A stretch of 64,000 bases of DNA from the NCBI GenBank assembly GCA_012729475.1, contig JAAYDB010000143.1, forward strand, positions 6,583-70,582. The letters are read 5' to 3'. The translations under genes were made by a program, and so were the position numbers. This document shows positions 3,909 to 24,980 of this stretch, one piece after another. Below the pieces are notes generated by a model, which searched no databases, was not told the origin of the DNA, and was given only the letters and a program-made list of their open reading frames with translations. Numbering within the stretch: the stretch's first letter is position 1; every line of letters begins with the position of its first letter. The stretch is from Bacteroidota bacterium (lineage in GTDB: Bacteria > Bacteroidota > Bacteroidia > Bacteroidales > VadinHA17).

Positions 3909-6011
3909 ATGGATAAAAATCTGAAATATACCAGAAACATCGGGATCATGGCCCACATTGATGCGGGAAAGACCACAACTACAGAAAGAATTCTGTATTA
4001 TACAGGTCGTACGCACAGGATGGGAGAGGTTCATAATGGAAATGCCCAGATGGACTGGATGGTTCAGGAACAGGAAAGAGGTATAACTATCACATCAGCT
4101 GCAACAACTGCTTACTGGAAATATAACAACGAAGACTATAAGATAAATATAATTGATACTCCCGGACATGTTGATTTTACTGTAGAGGTTGAAAGGGCAC
4201 TGCGTATTCTTGATGGAGCAGTAGCCGTTTTTTGTGGTGTCGGAGGAGTTGAACCCCAGTCAGAAACTGTCTGGAGGCAGGCTGACAGATACAAAGTTCC
4301 CAGGATCGCTTTTGTCAATAAAATGGACAGGTCGGGTGCCGATTTTTACAGTGTGGTGCAACAGATGAAGGACAAGCTTCATGCAAATGCTGTACCCATA
4401 CAGATACCAATTGGCAGTGAGGATGGCTTCTCCGGAATCATCGACCTTATCAATATGCAGGCTTTTATATATGCTGAAGATGATTTACTGGGTGCGAAAT
4501 ATCAGATTCAGGAGATACCAGAAGATATGATGGGCGAGACTGAGGAGTGGCGTGCCGGCCTGGTTGAAGCTTTGGCCGATGTGGATGACACTCTGCTTGA
4601 ACGGTTTATTGATGATAATGAATCAATAACCGCTGATGAGATAGTGCTTGCTCTGAGAAAAACAGTAATAACAGGAAATGTTATTCCTGTCCTTTGTGGG
4701 TCGGCATTCAAGAATAAAGGAATACAAAGTCTGCTCAATGCAATTACGGCATACCTGCCTTCTCCGCTTGATGTTGGTGCAGTTACGGGTACCGATCCCA
4801 GAAATGAGGAAAAAATTACACGTGACCCGGATAATGACGGCCCCTTATCAGCGCTTGTCTTTAAAATAGCCACCGACCCCTATGTGGGACGACTGGTTTT
4901 TATAAGGATATATTCAGGGATTCTTCATGCCGGAGATACTATCCTTAATGTAAGAACAGGAAAGAGAGAAAGGATAAACAGACTGTATCAAATGCATGCC
5001 AATAAACAGAATCCCAAGGAAAGTGTTTCAGCAGGAGATATATGTGCGGTAGTCGGGTTGAAAGATCTTAAGACGGGAGATACACTCTGTGCTATACATA
5101 AACCGATACTTCTGGAATCGATGGATTTTCCGGAACCGGTACTGGGGGTTGCTATTGAGCCCAAAACTCAGGCTGATGTTGATAAATTATCACTGGCTCT
5201 ACAGAAACTGGCCGAAGAAGATCCTACATTCCAGGTTAAAATCGATCCGGATAGTGGACAGACAATCATCAATGGAATGGGCGAACTTCATCTGGAGATA
5301 CTTGTTGACCGATTACGGAGAGAATTTGATGTGGAATGTAATCAGGGGGCACCTCAGGTAGCATACAAAGAAGCCCTGACAACAACATTCGAGTTACGTG
5401 AAGTATTCCGCAAACAGACTGGAGGAAGGGGTAAATTTGCAGATATAACCGTTGAATTATCACCTGCCGACAACGGAATAAGAGGATTGCAGTTTGTTAA
5501 TGAAGTGAAAGGCGGTAATATACCGAAGGAATTTATTCCGGCAGTGGAAAAAGGTTTCCTTGAAGCAATGTCTAACGGCCCTCTGGCAGGATTTCCAATG
5601 GAAAACCTCAAGGCAGTTCTCAAAGACGGCTCTTTCCATCCTGTTGATTCCGATTCGCTTTCTTTTGAAATAGCAGCAAGACAGGCTTTCAGACGTTTTG
5701 CAGGGAAATGTAATCCTGTCATTCTCGAACCTGTTATGGCAACGGAAGTTGTTACTCCCGAAGAATATGTGGGTGAAGTAATAAGTGATTTTAACAGGAG
5801 AAGAGGAAAGGTTGAAGGCATGGAATCAAAGGCCGGACTGAGGGTCATACGGGCAAAGGTGCCTCTTGCAGAAAGATTTGGCTATGTAACTATACTCCGG
5901 ACTCTTACTTCGGGAAGGGCGACCTCTACAATGGAATTTTCCCATTACGAAGAAGTTCCGGCAGAGATTGCAAAAAGAATTATTGAAATTACAAAAGGTA
6001 AAATTCTATAA
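3909..6011 (+). CDS. fusA: Elongation factor G (canonical)
   Basis: 700 aa with G-motifs [17 protein letters not shown] and NKMD. Lies between rpsG and rpsJ. Confidence 0.98.
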
Positions 6012-6013
6012 AG

Positions 6014-6319
6014 ATGAGTCAGAAAATCCGTATCAAACTGAAATCTTACGATCATAATCTGGTTGATAAATCGGCAGAAAAGATCGTAAAAACAGTAAAA
6101 TCTACCGGGGCGGTGGTCAGCGGTCCTATACCTCTCCCAACCCATAAAAAGATTTATACTGTTCTCCGGTCTCCATTCGTCAATAAAAAGGCTAGAGAAC
6201 AATTTCAGCTGTCTTCTTACAAAAGGCTGCTCGATATTTACAGCTCAACACCAAAAACAATTGATGCTCTGATGAAACTTGAGCTGCCAAGCGGTGTTGA
6301 AGTTGAAATCAAAGTGTGA
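6014..6319 (+). CDS. rpsJ: 30S ribosomal protein S10
   Basis: 101 aa, [21 protein letters not shown]. Starts 3 nt after the fusA stop. Confidence 0.98.
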
Positions 6320-6338
6320 AACCAGTAATGTTTAAGAG

Positions 6339-6962
6339 ATGCAGGGATTAATAGGAAAAAAGATAGGAATGACCTCTCTGTTTGATGAGGAAGGAAAAAA
6401 TATTCCATGTACCGTTCTACAGGCAGGTCCATGTGTTGTAACCCAGGTCAAGACAGTTGCAAAAGATGGTTATTCGGCTGTGCAGCTCGGATTTGACGAT
6501 AAAAAGGAAAAAAACACAACGAAAGCTGAAATGGGGCATTTCAGGAAAGTAAATACCGCCCCAAAGAGAAAAGTTGTTGAATTTTCGGGATTTACCGAAG
6601 ATCAATTCAAGGCAGGAGAGACGGTAACAGCAGAAAAACTCTTCAGCCCTGACGAATGGATCGATGTCAGAGGATGGTCAAAAGGTAAGGGATTTCAGGG
6701 TGTTGTACGACGTCATGGCTTCGGAGGTGTTGGAGGAGTGACTCATGGCCAGCATAACAGAGGCAGAGCTCCGGGTTCTTTGGGTGCATCATCATATCCT
6801 TCAAGGGTACTCCCGGGTATGAGAATGGCCGGACGAATGGGAGGCAATAAAGTAATGTCCATGAGTCTGCGTATCATCAGACTTATGGCTGATGAGAATA
6901 TATTAATAGTTAGTGGATCAGTCCCTGGTCCAAAAGGTGGTTACGTAATAATTACAAAATAA
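6339..6962 (+). CDS. rplC: 50S ribosomal protein L3
   Basis: 207 aa with the N-terminus [13 protein letters not shown]. Confidence 0.97.
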
Positions 6963-19180: not shown

Positions 19181-20173
19181 ATGGCCATATTATCATTCCA
19201 GAAGCCCGATAAAGTAATAATGCTGGAAGCAACCGACAGACTCGGACAATTCGAGTTTCGTCCCTTGGAACCCGGCTATGGTATTACTATAGGCAATGCT
19301 CTGAGGAGGATACTGCTCTCTTCACTCGAAGGGTATGCCATCACAACAGTGAAAATAGATGGTATCGACCATGAGTTCTCAACCATAAAAGGGGTTATCG
19401 AAGATGTTACTGAGATAATACTTAACCTGAAGCAGATCAGATTCAAAAAAATTGTTGAGGATGTCGACCAGGAAAAAGTAACTATTAAGATAGCCAATAA
19501 AGAAGTACTCAAGGCCGGCGATCTTAATGACTTTTTCAGCAGCTTCGAGGTACTTAATCCCGATCTGGTGATCATGAGGATGGAATCTGATGTGAAGATC
19601 AATATGGAACTATCTGTCAGTAGAGGTCGCGGATACGTCCCCGCTGAGGAAAATGAACCTGTTGACAGTGAATTCGGACTTATTGCTATCGATTCTATAT
19701 TTACTCCTATAAAGAATGTGAAATATTCTGTGGAAAACTATCGTGTTGAACAGAAAACTGACTACGAGAAATTATTGATAGAAATAGAAACAGACGGTTC
19801 CATCCATCCGAAAGATGCCCTTAAAGAGGCTGCCAAGATACTTATTTACCATTTTATGCTTTTCTCTGATGAAAAGATAACACTTAATTCCGATGAAAAG
19901 CTGGATAATGAGGAGTTTGATGAGGAGGTTCTCCATATGAGACAGTTGCTCAAAACCAAACTGATAGACCTCGATCTCTCAGTCAGAGCTCTTAATTGTC
20001 TTAAGGCAGCAGAAGTTGAAACACTTGGTGACCTTGTCAAGTTCAATAAGAATGACCTTCTTAAGATCAGGAACTTCGGAAAGAAATCACTTACCGAACT
20101 TGATGAATTACTGGAATCAATGAGCCTTTCATTTGGAATGGATGTAACCAAATACAAGCTTGATAAAGATTAA
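19181..20173 (+). CDS. rpoA: DNA-directed RNA polymerase subunit alpha
   Basis: 330 aa, with ...[17 protein letters not shown]... and a C-terminal domain ...[20 protein letters not shown]... Confidence 0.98.
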
Positions 20174-20197: not shown

Positions 20198-20827
20198 ATG
20201 CGACATTCAAAAACCATAAACCATTTAGGAAGGAAAAGTTTACACAGAAAAGCGATGCTGGCAAATATGGCGGTATCACTTATTATACATAAGAGGATAA
20301 CTACCACAACAGCCAAGGCAAAAGCCCTGAAAACTTATATCGAACCGCTCATAACAAAATCGAAAGACGATTCAACTCATTCCAGAAGAGTAGTGTTCAG
20401 TTATCTGCAGGATAAAGATGCTGTGTCAGAATTATTCAGGGATATATCTCCCAAAATAGCTGACAGGCCGGGAGGTTATACCCGTATCCTTAAAACAGGG
20501 AACCGTATCGGAGATAACGCTGAGATGTGTATTCTGGAACTTGTTGATTATAATGAAGCAATGTTGGGCGGAACAGACACAGGTAAGACCAGAACACGGC
20601 GCAGAAGAACCGGAAAGAAAAAAACAGAATCTGTTTCTAAAGCAGCAAAGAGTGCCGGAACTGCACCTTTAGCTGAGGCTGTAAATACAAAAGGCGACAG
20701 TGCCCCACCGGCAGAGGAAGAAAAAGTTAAAACCGAAGTAACTGATGTAGCCAACAGCACAGAAGAGGCTGAAAAACCCGTTGAAGAAAGCACAGAAGAA
20801 AAAGATAACAAAGAAGAAGATAAATAA
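20198..20827 (+). CDS. rplQ: 50S ribosomal protein L17 with a long charged C-terminal tail
   Basis: 209 aa. N-terminus [24 protein letters not shown]... is typical L17. The last ~85 aa are a low-complexity K/R-then-E-rich tail. Confidence 0.96.
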
Positions 20828-20920: not shown

Positions 20921-22201
<1,281 letters not shown>

Positions 22202-22218
22202 AATATCCTATGGATATT

Positions 22219-22256
22219 AACCCTTCCCGTTTGACTTAAGACGGGAAGGGTTTTTT
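22219..22256 (+). terminator. Intrinsic terminator of eno
   Basis: 10-bp G+C-rich stem CCCTTCCCGT (22221-22230) / ACGGGAAGGG (22241-22250), followed by T6 at 22251-22256. Confidence 0.9.
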
Positions 22257-22350
22257 ATGCAGTGTTGTGTAGCGCTGTCTGTTGTTTATAACAACAAACT
22301 CAGATCTGTTTCCTGATGCCTTATTCTTCGTTTCTGTCACATTTTCCAAC

Positions 22351-22372: not shown

Positions 22373-22411
22373 TCTTGTTCATATCAGGTTTACAACAAGG
22401 AATATAAATTA

Positions 22412-22442
22412 TTGACATGAGTCATTATTTAAAGTATATTTG
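22412..22442 (+). promoter_or_regulatory. Bacteroidota-type promoter driving the candidate ncRNA
   Basis: TTG at 22412-22414, a 20-nt spacer, then TATATTTG at 22435-22442 (TAnnTTTG). The surroundings are very A+T-rich. Confidence 0.55.
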
Positions 22443-22446
22443 GTAT

Positions 22447-22950
22447 ATCAGGTGAGCGATAAAGGGCTGCTTGAAAGATGTGGAAACGGAAATGGTTTCT
22501 TAGTTGAGACAGTATCCGGTTCATTCAAACCTAAGGGTTTGCGCATCAGCAAAGCCGAAGTCTGTACTAAGGGAACCTGGTTGCAAATTAATCCCCGATG
22601 TACGGAAAGTCGAAGAATACCGGAAACGTTCTTTCAACGACTAAGTAACAGGGCTTCATAGAGACAGAAGACTTCGGTCCGATCTCAGATGAAAAAGTAC
22701 ATGATCCTTAGGGTGACTGTACCAGCCTGAATGACACTTCGTCCCGGAAAGTCCCGCCGAAAGACGGGAACAAAAGGACAGCCGGATGGACCTTCTGTAA
22801 AAAGAAGGACCGGAAGGCCATGGGTTACAGAACACTGCTTCGGCAGGAATATGTAACCGGCCATAATAACAGTAACCTGACGCCGTTTGCGGCTCTGGTT
22901 GCAGACGGTGAATGGGAACTACTCTTAAGGATTAGTTCCCATTATTGTTT
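22447..22950 (+). ncRNA. Candidate ~500-nt structured non-coding RNA of unrecognised family
   Basis: Bounded by its own promoter and terminator. Hand-counted G+C is 48.5% over 22441-22920, against 22-28% in the 120 nt upstream. It holds at least six local hairpins, four capped by UUCG, GAAA or UUUG loops. There is no convincing ORF on either strand. The ends given are predictions. Confidence 0.5.
22911..22950 (+). terminator. Intrinsic terminator ending the candidate ncRNA
   Basis: 11-bp stem AATGGGAACTA (22911-22921) / TAGTTCCCATT (22933-22943) with an 11-nt loop, then ATTGTTT. Confidence 0.75.
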
Positions 22951-23062
22951 GATTGCTGCCTTCATTAACAGCTGGGTATTCTCATTGCCCCGATATTGGT
23001 ACCCCCTGACATTACGGAAAATATGTCACGGATTTGTCTTTTTTTCTGTGATCATATTCTCG

Positions 23063-23070
23063 TATATTTG
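23063..23070 (+). promoter_or_regulatory. -7 box of the UbiD-family gene promoter
   Basis: TATATTTG ends 17 nt upstream of ATG 23088. Confidence 0.45.
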
Positions 23071-23087
23071 ATCCATATAACCATCTT

Positions 23088-24980
23088 ATGGCATACTCAG
23101 GATTGATACGCTTCATAAGGGCACTTGATGAAGCAGATGAACTATTAAGGATTAAAATTTTTGCCGATCCGGTCCTCGAAATAACCGAGATAACTGACAG
23201 GGTATCCAAAGCCGGAGGGAAAGCTCTGCTCTTTGAAAATACCGGAACACATTTCCCCCTTCTTATTAATGCTTACGGGTCTGCAAAAAGAATGTCCATT
23301 GTTTTTGGCAGGAAGAATACAGAAGAAACTGTGAATGAAATAATCTCACTGTTCAGCCTTTTCTCAAATGCCTCAGGCACATGGCTCAAAAAACTATCAT
23401 CTTTACCTGCCCTGATCAAAGTAACAGGTTATATGCCGGTAAAGACGAAGCGTAAAGGTATTTGTCAGCAAATTATAATAAAAGATCCCGATCTCTCAAT
23501 ACTTCCTGTTCTGAAATGCTGGCCACACGATGGAGGAAGGTTTATTACCCTGCCAATGGTACACACAGTGCATCCTCTTTCCGGAGATACCAATGTAGGG
23601 ATGTACAGAATGCAGATCATGGACAGGAATACGACAGCTATGCACTGGCAAAGACATAAAACCGGAGCAAATCACTGCGAGGCATGGAGAAAAACCGGAC
23701 GTAAAATGCCCGTCTCAGTAGCTCTTGGAGGCGATCCTGTATATGCCTATTCAGCCACTGCTCCTATGCCTGAAAATATGAACGAATATATACTTGCAGG
23801 TTTCCTGAGGAAAAAGAAAGTAAAAATGGTCAAATGCATTACCAATGACATTTACGTCCCTGATGATGCCGATTTTGTTATTGAAGGATATGTTGATCCC
23901 AATGAAGAAATGACCGTTGAAGGTCCTTTTGGTGACCATACAGGCTTCTATTCACTGCCGGGTTTGTATCCCAGGTTCCATGTGACCTGTATAACCCATG
24001 CTGCCAAAGCTTGCTATCCGGCCACTATTGTAGGGATACCTCCCATGGAAGATGCATGGCTTGCCAAAGAAACAGAGAAAATATTCCTGGCACCACTGAA
24101 ATTAGTGATACAACCTGAAATAGAAGATCTTCATATGCCCGATGCCGGAGTAGCACATAATCTGGCTATAGTAAAAATCAACAAATCATATCCGGGTCAG
24201 GGAAAAAAAGTGATAAACTCCTTATTCGGAGCAGGGCAGATGATGTTCACCAAATACATGATTGTTGTAAACGGGGATATTGATATACGGAATTATAAAA
24301 GCTTATTCACCCATGTCAGTAAAAATGTGGATGTGCGTTCTGATCTGATCTTTACCACAGGTCCTCTTGATGTTCTGGATCATTCTTCCGACTCGTTCTC
24401 CGTAGGAGGGAAAATGGGCATTGATGGTACGGAAAAGATGAAAGAAGAAATAGGCAGTTATGGAGATTTCAATAAAAATAAAGGACACTCTGACAAGGCA
24501 GGACCAGAAGAGTTTCCGGGAGAAAATGAAGGGAAAACAAAAATTAATATTTTTCCGGAACTCAATATGATGGTGTTGGGTCTTAATACCCGTAGCGACA
24601 AGGAACTTGTTGAGCGCACAAAAGTGTTTCTGCGTAATAAAAAAGACCAGACCTCCTTCCGCTTTATTGCTGTTGTAGATCACACTGTTGACATAACAGA
24701 TATTTTTATGGTATCATGGCAGCTGCTGTCGAATGCCGATCCCCTAAGAGATATTTTGATCATTCATGATAACACTGTATTTATTGACGGATCACTAAAG
24801 GTTTTCACCAATCGTGGTTTCCCCAGAGAATGGCCGAATATTGTATGTTCTTCGGAGGAAACAATAAAGGCTGTTGACGAAAAATGGAAATCTCTTGGCG
24901 TGGGGCCTTTCATTCCTTCTCCATCATTAACCTGTTCAGCACTTTACCTTCAGGGTGATGGTAAAGTGATTGTAACTTAA
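23088..24980 (+). CDS. UbiD-family (prenyl-FMN dependent) decarboxylase, long form; probably menaquinone biosynthesis
   Basis: 630 aa. The N-terminus ...LIRFIRALDEADELLRIKIFADPVLEITEITDRVSKAGGKALLFEN... and ...GGKMGIDGTEK... are UbiD hallmarks. There is a C-terminal region about 140 aa longer than E. coli UbiD. Confidence 0.85.
   Translation: MAYSGLIRFIRALDEADELLRIKIFADPVLEITEITDRVSKAGGKALLFENTGTHFPLLINAYGSAKRMSIVFGRKNTEETVNEIISLFSLFSNASGTWLKKLSSLPALIKVTGYMPVKTKRKGICQQIIIKDPDLSILPVLKCWPHDGGRFITLPMVHTVHPLSGDTNVGMYRMQIMDRNTTAMHWQRHKTGANHCEAWRKTGRKMPVSVALGGDPVYAYSATAPMPENMNEYILAGFLRKKKVKMVKCITNDIYVPDDADFVIEGYVDPNEEMTVEGPFGDHTGFYSLPGLYPRFHVTCITHAAKACYPATIVGIPPMEDAWLAKETEKIFLAPLKLVIQPEIEDLHMPDAGVAHNLAIVKINKSYPGQGKKVINSLFGAGQMMFTKYMIVVNGDIDIRNYKSLFTHVSKNVDVRSDLIFTTGPLDVLDHSSDSFSVGGKMGIDGTEKMKEEIGSYGDFNKNKGHSDKAGPEEFPGENEGKTKINIFPELNMMVLGLNTRSDKELVERTKVFLRNKKDQTSFRFIAVVDHTVDITDIFMVSWQLLSNADPLRDILIIHDNTVFIDGSLKVFTNRGFPREWPNIVCSSEETIKAVDEKWKSLGVGPFIPSPSLTCSALYLQGDGKVIVT

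Follow-up and report, generated by a model that had tools for sequence, protein, structure and literature searches.

Large conserved RNAs of unknown function are very rare in bacteria (PMC5737381), and OLE, GOLLD, ROOL, HEARO and raiA make up the usual list. We describe here an RNA gene of about 504 nucleotides (nt) on the + strand (22447..22950) of a 64,000-nt stretch of DNA from a Bacteroidota bacterium of the order Bacteroidales (contig JAAYDB010000143.1 of assembly GCA_012729475.1; this whole stretch is called the window below). The RNA is very probably a real, stand-alone structured RNA that has not been catalogued and, as it belongs to no catalogued family, a candidate for a new class.

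The closest described RNAs share its general character. OLE (RF01071), an RNA of ~600 nt from anaerobic and extremophilic Bacillota, is also large and multi-domain with many invariant nucleotides, occurs as one copy per genome in mostly anaerobic or environmental carriers, and long had no known function. OLE belongs to an operon, where it adjoins its partner gene oapA, whereas the window RNA comes with a promoter and a terminator of its own and does not keep to any one neighbouring gene. OLE also belongs to another phylum, does not match the window RNA by covariance model, and differs from its architecture of a closing helix, an invariant internal loop and a multi-way junction. Two reports describe OLE as acting in trans in a ribonucleoprotein with OapA, OapB and OapC, and as a homodimer by cryo-electron microscopy (cryo-EM) (PMC9723947, PMC12286853). 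ROOL (~580 nt) and GOLLD (~800 nt) likewise are large, ornate, stand-alone transcripts with multistem junctions and unknown function. Both often lie in prophages and near tRNAs and contain few invariant nucleotides, ROOL having 10 conserved at 97% or more (PMC5737381). OLE, ROOL and GOLLD have recently been reported as RNA-only assemblies or candidates for such (PMC12286853). The raiA motif (~200-250 nt, Bacillota and Actinomycetota) is another stand-alone, highly conserved and structured RNA of unknown function, but it is about half the size of the window RNA, comes from other phyla and gives no model match. It is named after a frequent neighbouring gene, whereas the neighbours of the window RNA vary.

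Homologues and transcription unit

Homologues were collected in two ways. The genome set consisted of 55 loci that encode relatives of the UbiD-family protein encoded downstream of the RNA, with one genome per GTDB species. A search of these 55 loci with the window element using nhmmer matched 28 Bacteroidales loci over the full length (E = 1e-52 to 1e-91) and four more in two pieces. All 32 matches lie directly upstream of the UbiD-family gene, and the neighbouring proteins are just 54-63% identical. Metagenomes were scanned with a degenerate 3' pattern that matches every known copy, which gave at least 119 contigs with the RNA. Among the matches listed, 136 copies are full-length, with lengths of 273-651 nt, and 101 of them are non-redundant at 93% identity. 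The carriers come from peat, sediments, digesters, activated sludge and the ocean, and the window's organism recurs in biogas and anaerobic-digester assemblies. OW818650.1, OY970276.1 and GCA_054684775.1 are examples of carrier genomes. An initial annotation of the window, made from the letters alone, had proposed a large structured RNA at this place; the element proves to be widely conserved outside its source genome.

Conservation begins at a promoter and ends after a U-tract. The -7 box TATATTTG (TAnnTTTG; 22435..22442, + strand) follows a -33-like TTG (22412..22414, + strand) after a 20-nt spacer; TTG and TAnnTTTG are the established -33/-7 promoter elements of Bacteroidota. The RNA would start just 3' of the box and run through the U-tract. 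The box is present in 99 of 100 non-redundant copies, its first T being 19-20 nt upstream of an invariant GAGCG, and about 80 of the 100 have TTG 19-21 nt upstream of the box. A sigma-70-type scan found TTGACA-17-TATATT, an 11/12 match, at the same promoter. At the other end, the terminal hairpin AAUGGGAACUA...UAGUUCCCAUU (22911-22943, + strand) with its tail UAUUGUU(U), reaching to 22950, forms an intrinsic terminator, which a simple terminator scan missed, since other bases interrupt the T-run of the tail. The hairpin and U-rich tail UAUUGUUU are kept in every homologue. Among the 28 genomes found by way of the adjacent protein, ten of the 12 stem pairs show no variation; where changes do occur, they are rare and compensatory (ACU/AGU to AUU/AAU, ACC/GGU or ACG/CGU). 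Such invariance is unusual for a mere terminator and suggests a second role, for example in protein binding or 3'-end protection. The sequence, its coordinates, the promoter and the terminator are as the initial annotation had described them, and these signals support its view of the RNA as an independent transcript from its own promoter to its own terminator.

The composition and predicted fold of the region agree with a structured RNA on this strand. The G+C content of 22441-22920 is 47.9%; the 120 nt before it have 25%, the genes on either side 42-43% and the window as a whole 39.8%. Two figures of the initial annotation needed correction, from 48.5% to 47.9% for the block and from 37-40% to 42-43% for the nearby genes. 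The minimum free energy of the + strand is -174.8 kcal/mol (z = -6.1 versus dinucleotide shuffles), with z = -3.1 for the - strand. Several G-U pairs are invariant or frequent (38/470, 235/322, 50/456, 63/125 and 421/453 in the pair numbering); these would be A-C on the opposite strand, which places the RNA on the + strand. The direction in which the promoter and the terminator face points to the same strand.

A protein-coding origin of the conservation was considered, in which the region would encode one or two small proteins from the two + strand open reading frames (ORFs) of 73 and 83 amino acids (aa) that had already been noted. Both ORFs exist, and the longer one (22820-23071 of the window, equivalent to 2733-2984 of locus L056) is listed as a gene in the public metagenome annotations of L056 and L058-L060. 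However, neither ORF has a Pfam or NCBIfam match. They are kept open in 0/27 and 2/27 homologues, respectively, with frameshifting indels in 25-27 of the 27, and variability among the homologues has no codon 3-periodicity. The longest stop-free stretch changes both strand and frame from one homologue to another, no frame is conserved, and the minus strand offers at most 59 aa. The 83-aa ORF also extends beyond the end of conservation, and its annotation as a gene is most likely spurious. A coding explanation has next to no probability.

Secondary structure and conserved core

The fold is defined by compensatory changes. RNAalifold predicted 120 pairs from the 28 genome-derived sequences, 51 of which changed on both sides. 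With an explicit pair counter, 97.2% of the cells in this set are standard pairs, a share that drops to 27-47% once the 3' side is slid by 1-3 columns. The 51/120 double-change pairs compare with 10-16 in the slid controls and 18.4 +/- 2.8 in shuffles, and none of 500 shuffles equalled any observed pairing measure. An alignment of 85 non-redundant sequences of standard length gave 140 pairs in 25 helices, 70 pairs having a compensatory change in at least two sequences, so that the compensatory changes anticipated for the proposed helices are indeed found among aligned homologues. The column pairs with the highest mutual information are pairs of the model. No convincing pseudoknots or long-range non-nested pairs were detected by mutual information, the extra signals confirming local stems that RNAalifold had dropped.

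The structure is closed by helix P1, formed by 22448..22453 (UCAGGU) and 22875..22880 (ACCUGA) on the + strand, with covariation of the types UA/UG/CG, AU/GC and GU/GC/AU. In the Draconibacterium sp. copy, P1 reads UCAGAC/GUCUGA, which amounts to two compensatory double changes relative to the window. P1 is followed by an invariant core internal loop, with a 5' strand GAGCGAUAAAG (consensus GAGCGAUAAAAG; 22454..22464, + strand) and a 3' strand AUAAUAACAGUA (22863..22874, + strand), and by helix P2, which pairs 22465..22468 (GGCU) with 22859..22862 (GGCC) on the + strand. A-U changes to G-C in step in P2 (22 vs 5 sequences), and two of its pairs covary in the 85-sequence set. P2 leads into a multi-helix junction that bears domains 1-5, and a hairpin, P6, and the terminal hairpin lie outside P1.

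Domain 1 (22469..22555, + strand) consists of the stems 22469-72/22552-55 and 22477-82/22542-47 and the hairpins 22483-22522 and 22526-22541. Its helices contain 17 pairs with a compensatory change in at least two sequences, and the nucleotides of its apical loop, CUUA, have a conservation of 97% or more. Domain 2 (22557..22740, + strand) is closed by 22557-60/22737-40, where three of the four pairs covary, and comprises a hairpin at 22562-22605 (5/6 pairs covary), a second hairpin at 22608-22642 with a GAAA loop, and a variable sub-domain at 22645-22735. Domain 3 (22741..22779, + strand) is a GUCC...GGAC hairpin present in all variants, with a variable inner stem; mutual information in the alignment peaks at two pairs of this stem, 22752/22769 and 22754/22767. 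The domain 4 hairpin (22781..22818, + strand) is built on 22788-96/22803-11, with 6/8 pairs covarying; its loop, GUAAAA in the window and GUAACA in the consensus, is at least 97% conserved. In domain 5 (22822..22858, + strand), the outer stem GGUUAC/GUAACC has 97.6% canonical pairs, two of them covarying, and is separated by an internal loop from the inner stem CUGC[UUCG]GCAG, where 4/4 pairs covary in alignment A1 and the mutual-information pair 22836/22845 is 95% Watson-Crick. P6, 3' of the closing helix (22881..22910, + strand), has the form CGCCGU..GCGGC[UCUG]GUUGC..ACGGUG, with compensatory changes in 8 of 11 pairs.

Five of the seven helices put forward in the initial annotation (22526-41, 22608-42, 22669-80, 22788-22811 and P1) are supported by covariation. 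The proposed fifth helix needed partial revision: its GGUUAC/GUAACC and CUGC[UUCG]GCAG stems contain covarying pairs, and its outer GGCC/GGCC pairing is replaced by the covarying long-range P2 (22465-68/22859-62). The short hairpin GCCG[UUUG]CGGC at 22882-93 is not conserved and gives way to the longer P6 with its UCUG loop.

The most conserved part of the RNA is the A-rich loop pair between P1 and P2, GAGCGAUAAAAG opposite AAUAACAGUA, which is almost invariant. Each position of GAGCGAUAAAAG is at least 96% identical in 74 metagenome representatives retrieved without this motif. On the other side, AAUAACAGUA (AAUAACA-UA) is identical in all 27 representatives retrieved through the UbiD-family protein, a retrieval that is unbiased for the 3' loop motif, with the G in 26/27. 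The sequence pattern fits a bulged-G (sarcin-ricin or loop E) module, with P1-GAG (22454-56) opposite AGUA-P1 (22871-74), and the core loop is a candidate for such a module followed by UAA/GAN-like elements. The 85 sequences, with a median pairwise identity of 72%, share 131 alignment columns with a conservation of 97% or more, a larger number than in ROOL, though from a narrower clade. Of these columns, 107 lie outside the retrieval pattern, and 37 of the 107 are unpaired.

The periphery, in contrast to this core, is variable. The apical sub-domain of domain 2 is deleted in variants of ~405 nt (L025, L026, L029 and L034) and expanded in those of 530-650 nt. Mini variants have lost domain 2 and most of domain 1, and measure ~270 nt (L159, 2185-2457) or ~310 nt (L074, L132 and L176). 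Domain 1 of L159 is shrunk to two small hairpins, and the L074 type (4964-5275), located 3' of a clpS-like ORF, has its 5' core motif altered to UCAGGCAAGUGAUAAAAGG. The mini variants retain P1, the core loop, P2, domains 3-5, P6 and the terminal hairpin, and a covariance model of the 3' half (R1, 64 sequences) matched L074, L132 and L176 end to end with 63-66 bits. Domains 1 and 2 are thus expandable or dispensable, and the natural size of the RNA ranges from ~270 to ~650 nt. An apparent 270-nt insertion in L018 (3152-3421) is a run of N, due to masking or a scaffold gap.

Genomic contexts

In the window, the RNA lies within the 886 nt that separate the ORFs of eno and the UbiD-family gene, with no credible ORF between them. 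Upstream are rpoA (19181-20173) and rplQ (20198-20827), at the end of a ribosomal-protein/rpoA cluster, and eno (enolase; 20924-22201), whose terminator (22219-22252) precedes the RNA promoter. The UbiD-family gene (23088-24980) follows the RNA on the same strand. Its 630-aa product matches TIGR03701, the NCBIfam model of the futalosine-pathway menaquinone decarboxylase, with 577.7 bits (cut-off 495.9), and a gene for a SpoIIE-domain phosphatase is a further downstream neighbour. Two observations concern the DNA upstream of the RNA. About 50 nt ahead of the -7 box, at about 22385-22397, the clade with the eno-RNA-UbiD order shows partial conservation of a block GGTTTAyAACAAC (at the same position in L001-L014) that the other contexts lack; this block may bind a regulator, act like an UP element or be left over from the 3' region of eno. 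The eno terminator hairpin (22179-22267, minus strand) gave a weak cmscan match to the Neisseria small RNA IR_84 (25.5 bits, E = 0.096, gathering score 51), which we rejected as generic resemblance between terminators.

The arrangement in the window would suit a cis-regulatory leader, a riboswitch or attenuator of the menaquinone decarboxylase gene. The RNA is on the same strand and directly upstream of that gene here and in the 32 GTDB loci, and the terminator at its end could serve as an attenuator. However, in 29 of the 32 RNA-bearing loci a separate TAnnTTTG box precedes the ATG of the UbiD-family gene by 23-31 nt (in the window, within 23063-23087), and this box is also kept in loci that lack the RNA. 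Its nearness to the ATG implies a very short, near-leaderless 5' untranslated region and independent transcription. The distance from the RNA terminator to the ATG varies from 55 to 517 nt, and the terminator stem lacks a conserved alternative partner. The gene also occurs without the RNA, in Verrucomicrobiota and Chitinophagales loci and in a Rikenella-like metagenome-assembled genome (MAG), and in other lineages unrelated or convergent genes follow the RNA. A leader function is highly improbable, in line with the separate UbiD promoter and the unrelated contexts elsewhere. In the Rikenella-like MAG (L027, 2580-2808), the rpoA-rplQ-eno-UbiD-SpoIIE synteny is kept with an eno-UbiD gap of 228 nt from which the RNA is absent, so that it has been either lost or moved in this lineage.

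The eno/RNA/UbiD order expected from the window is conserved in part: the RNA is directly upstream of the UbiD gene in 32 genomes, but eno is sometimes lost and other contexts occur elsewhere. In L005, L081, L106, L129 and L172, eno is missing and the RNA comes straight after rplQ, and L012 and L037 have only an eno fragment, which indicates repeated loss of eno while the RNA was retained. The position after rplQ recalls L17DE of Lactobacillales and Listeria, a structured element located just 3' of rplQ. L17DE is a small element of Bacillota; its Rfam model does not match the window RNA, whose position beside rplQ in these five loci reflects lineage-specific synteny.

Unrelated contexts were observed at ~24 metagenome loci among the matches listed and in a Draconibacterium sp. 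assembly. The RNA is flanked by a GH29 fucosidase gene on one side and a convergent argS on the other, lies 3' of a citrate synthase gene (on a TARA Oceans scaffold) or of a clpS-like ORF, or adjoins a gene for an acetyl-CoA hydrolase, a phosphodiesterase or a PHP protein. Prolixibacteraceae carry the argS-linked type, whose arginyl-tRNA synthetases are 80-88% identical to proteins labelled Draconibacterium sp. In GCA_054684775.1 (Draconibacterium sp.), the 1.7-Mb contig BAAFUQ010000011.1 carries an RNA copy of ~530 nt between argS and the GH29 fucosidase gene (L181, ~6046-6578, minus strand). Nothing in the protein name marks this assembly as a MAG, and its source may be a cultured, experimentally accessible host. 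The RNA is not tied to any neighbouring gene.

Nor is the RNA mobile or viral. BLASTN against plasmids and phage genomes and a pattern scan of IMG/VR viral contigs gave no match. It differs in this respect from ROOL and GOLLD, as it also does in having no tRNA nearby and in its inheritance as a single, vertically transmitted copy beside rpoA-rplQ-eno.

Relation to known families and possible roles

The RNA could not be assigned to any Rfam 15 family, nor specifically to RNase P, transfer-messenger RNA (tmRNA), a riboswitch or leader, OLE, GOLLD, ROOL, raiA or HEARO/omega. Within the RNA, cmscan with the models of all 4227 Rfam 15 families gave no match at E <= 1, 10 divergent homologous loci were equally without a match at this level, and the whole window had none at Rfam gathering thresholds. 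At E <= 10, the RNA alone gave only three chance matches of 9-14 bits to unrelated families with gathering scores of 59-110. Two general properties of a structured non-coding RNA gene are present, compensatory pairs in excess of controls and the lack of a conserved reading frame. The initial annotation had recognised no known family, and each of the grounds it named for giving up the proposal (an Rfam match, an ORF or codon signal, lack of conservation and lack of compensation) is contradicted by these results.

A very divergent member of a known family (RNase P, tmRNA, 6S, signal recognition particle (SRP) RNA, OLE, GOLLD, ROOL, HEARO/omega or raiA) might be missed by the models. The window RNA resembles a housekeeping RNA in its single copy, its vertical inheritance by rpoA-rplQ-eno and its consensus promoter, and the 5'/3' closing helix is reminiscent of RNase P. 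Type A RNase P RNA (RF00010) is similar in layout, with a closing helix, an invariant core and a dispensable periphery, in size (~330-450 vs 270-650 nt) and in its single-copy gene of housekeeping character, which has a promoter and a terminator to itself. However, neither RF00010 nor RF00011 matched even at E <= 10, and the P4 strands GGAAAGUCC / ACAGAAnnCGGCUUA were not seen by eye in the consensus. RNase P RNA has no large invariant loop directly above P1, whereas the window RNA has such a loop as well as hairpins 3' of its closing helix. ARAGORN detected no tRNA or tmRNA in the window, no IscB/TnpB gene lies beside the RNA, there is no phage link, and neither the window copy nor the 10 homologues matched at E <= 1 with permissive filters. 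A missed known family is very unlikely. Three short resemblances noticed by eye have no model support and were treated as chance: CCAGUGAGCGAU and GAAUGAC to E. coli M1 RNA, CCGGAAGG to SRP domain IV, and GUAACA.GG and CCGGAAGGU to the 3' end of 16S rRNA.

The best overall explanation, to which we give a probability of roughly 0.7, is a stand-alone RNA gene of ~504 nt whose product acts in trans as a folded particle. The stand-alone single-copy gene, the invariant core with expendable periphery, and the lack of a fixed neighbour or phage link lead us to a trans-acting particle, which would act neither by cis-regulation nor mainly by antisense pairing. Such a particle would most likely be a ribonucleoprotein built on this RNA, or a higher-order assembly of the RNA alone, a mechanism that we propose tentatively, at somewhat less than even odds. 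Recognition or activity would then lie mainly in the invariant internal loop above P1, and the invariant terminal hairpin would serve as a second site, for protein binding or stabilisation.

The same features could belong to a ribozyme, in which the invariant junction and internal loop would form an active site for self-processing or for reactions in trans, and peripheral domains would stabilise the fold as in RNase P and group I/II introns. Its size, multi-domain build, fixed core with dispensable peripheral domains and the 37 unpaired conserved columns outside the retrieval pattern are all compatible with catalysis, and large complex bacterial RNAs are considered to be enriched for catalytic or unusual functions (PMC5737381). 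However, no known ribozyme model matches, the sequence indicates no substrate, and there is no conserved cleavage-site context, no flanking exons and no repeated copies. OLE, ROOL, GOLLD and raiA illustrate that large conserved RNAs need not be catalytic, and we consider a ribozyme unlikely. A base-pairing regulator or sponge, whose conserved single-stranded stretches would pair in trans with mRNAs or small RNAs while the remainder serves as a scaffold, appears more doubtful still. Like bacterial small RNAs, the window RNA has its own promoter and terminator, and the invariant loops CUUA (domain 1) and GUAACA (domain 4) and AACGUUCUUU could offer pairing sites. However, ~500 nt with 140 conserved pairs far exceed the needs of seed pairing, conservation covers more than 100 positions including junctions, and no target can be predicted.

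Several points weigh against a trans-acting particle of a new class. The transcript ends, abundance and processing are deduced from sequence signals only. The sampled sequences come essentially from a single order, Bacteroidales as GTDB defines it (with Prolixibacteraceae), so that conservation counts are inflated relative to families that span several phyla, and the covariation counts take no account of phylogeny. At the 26 positions of the retrieval pattern, invariance is circular in the metagenome set and unbiased only in the 32 UbiD-retrieved genomes. The nucleotides behind the bulged-G and UAA/GAN interpretation of the core loop are invariant, so that covariation is uninformative for them. 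No constant neighbour gene that could be a partner co-occurs with the RNA across the contexts examined. Finally, a description of this RNA was not found in the literature searched, and a small risk of prior description remains.

For annotation, the RNA accounts for the 886-nt gap between the eno and UbiD-family ORFs and removes a spurious gene call of 83 aa. Its clean gene definition, covariation-backed structure and natural minimal versions of ~270-310 nt make experiments, and cryo-EM of the mini variants, feasible, and the genus Draconibacterium, which has cultured members, offers experimental access. RNA-guided nucleases and RNA-only nanocages are examples of the new biochemistry to which large conserved RNAs of this kind have repeatedly led, and the core of the window RNA is conserved to a degree usual for RNase P or OLE. 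We think it likely that this RNA is the first member of a class of large, ornate bacterial RNAs (270-650 nt) that has not been described before, with a probably fundamental role as a ribozyme, a ribonucleoprotein core or a self-assembling particle.

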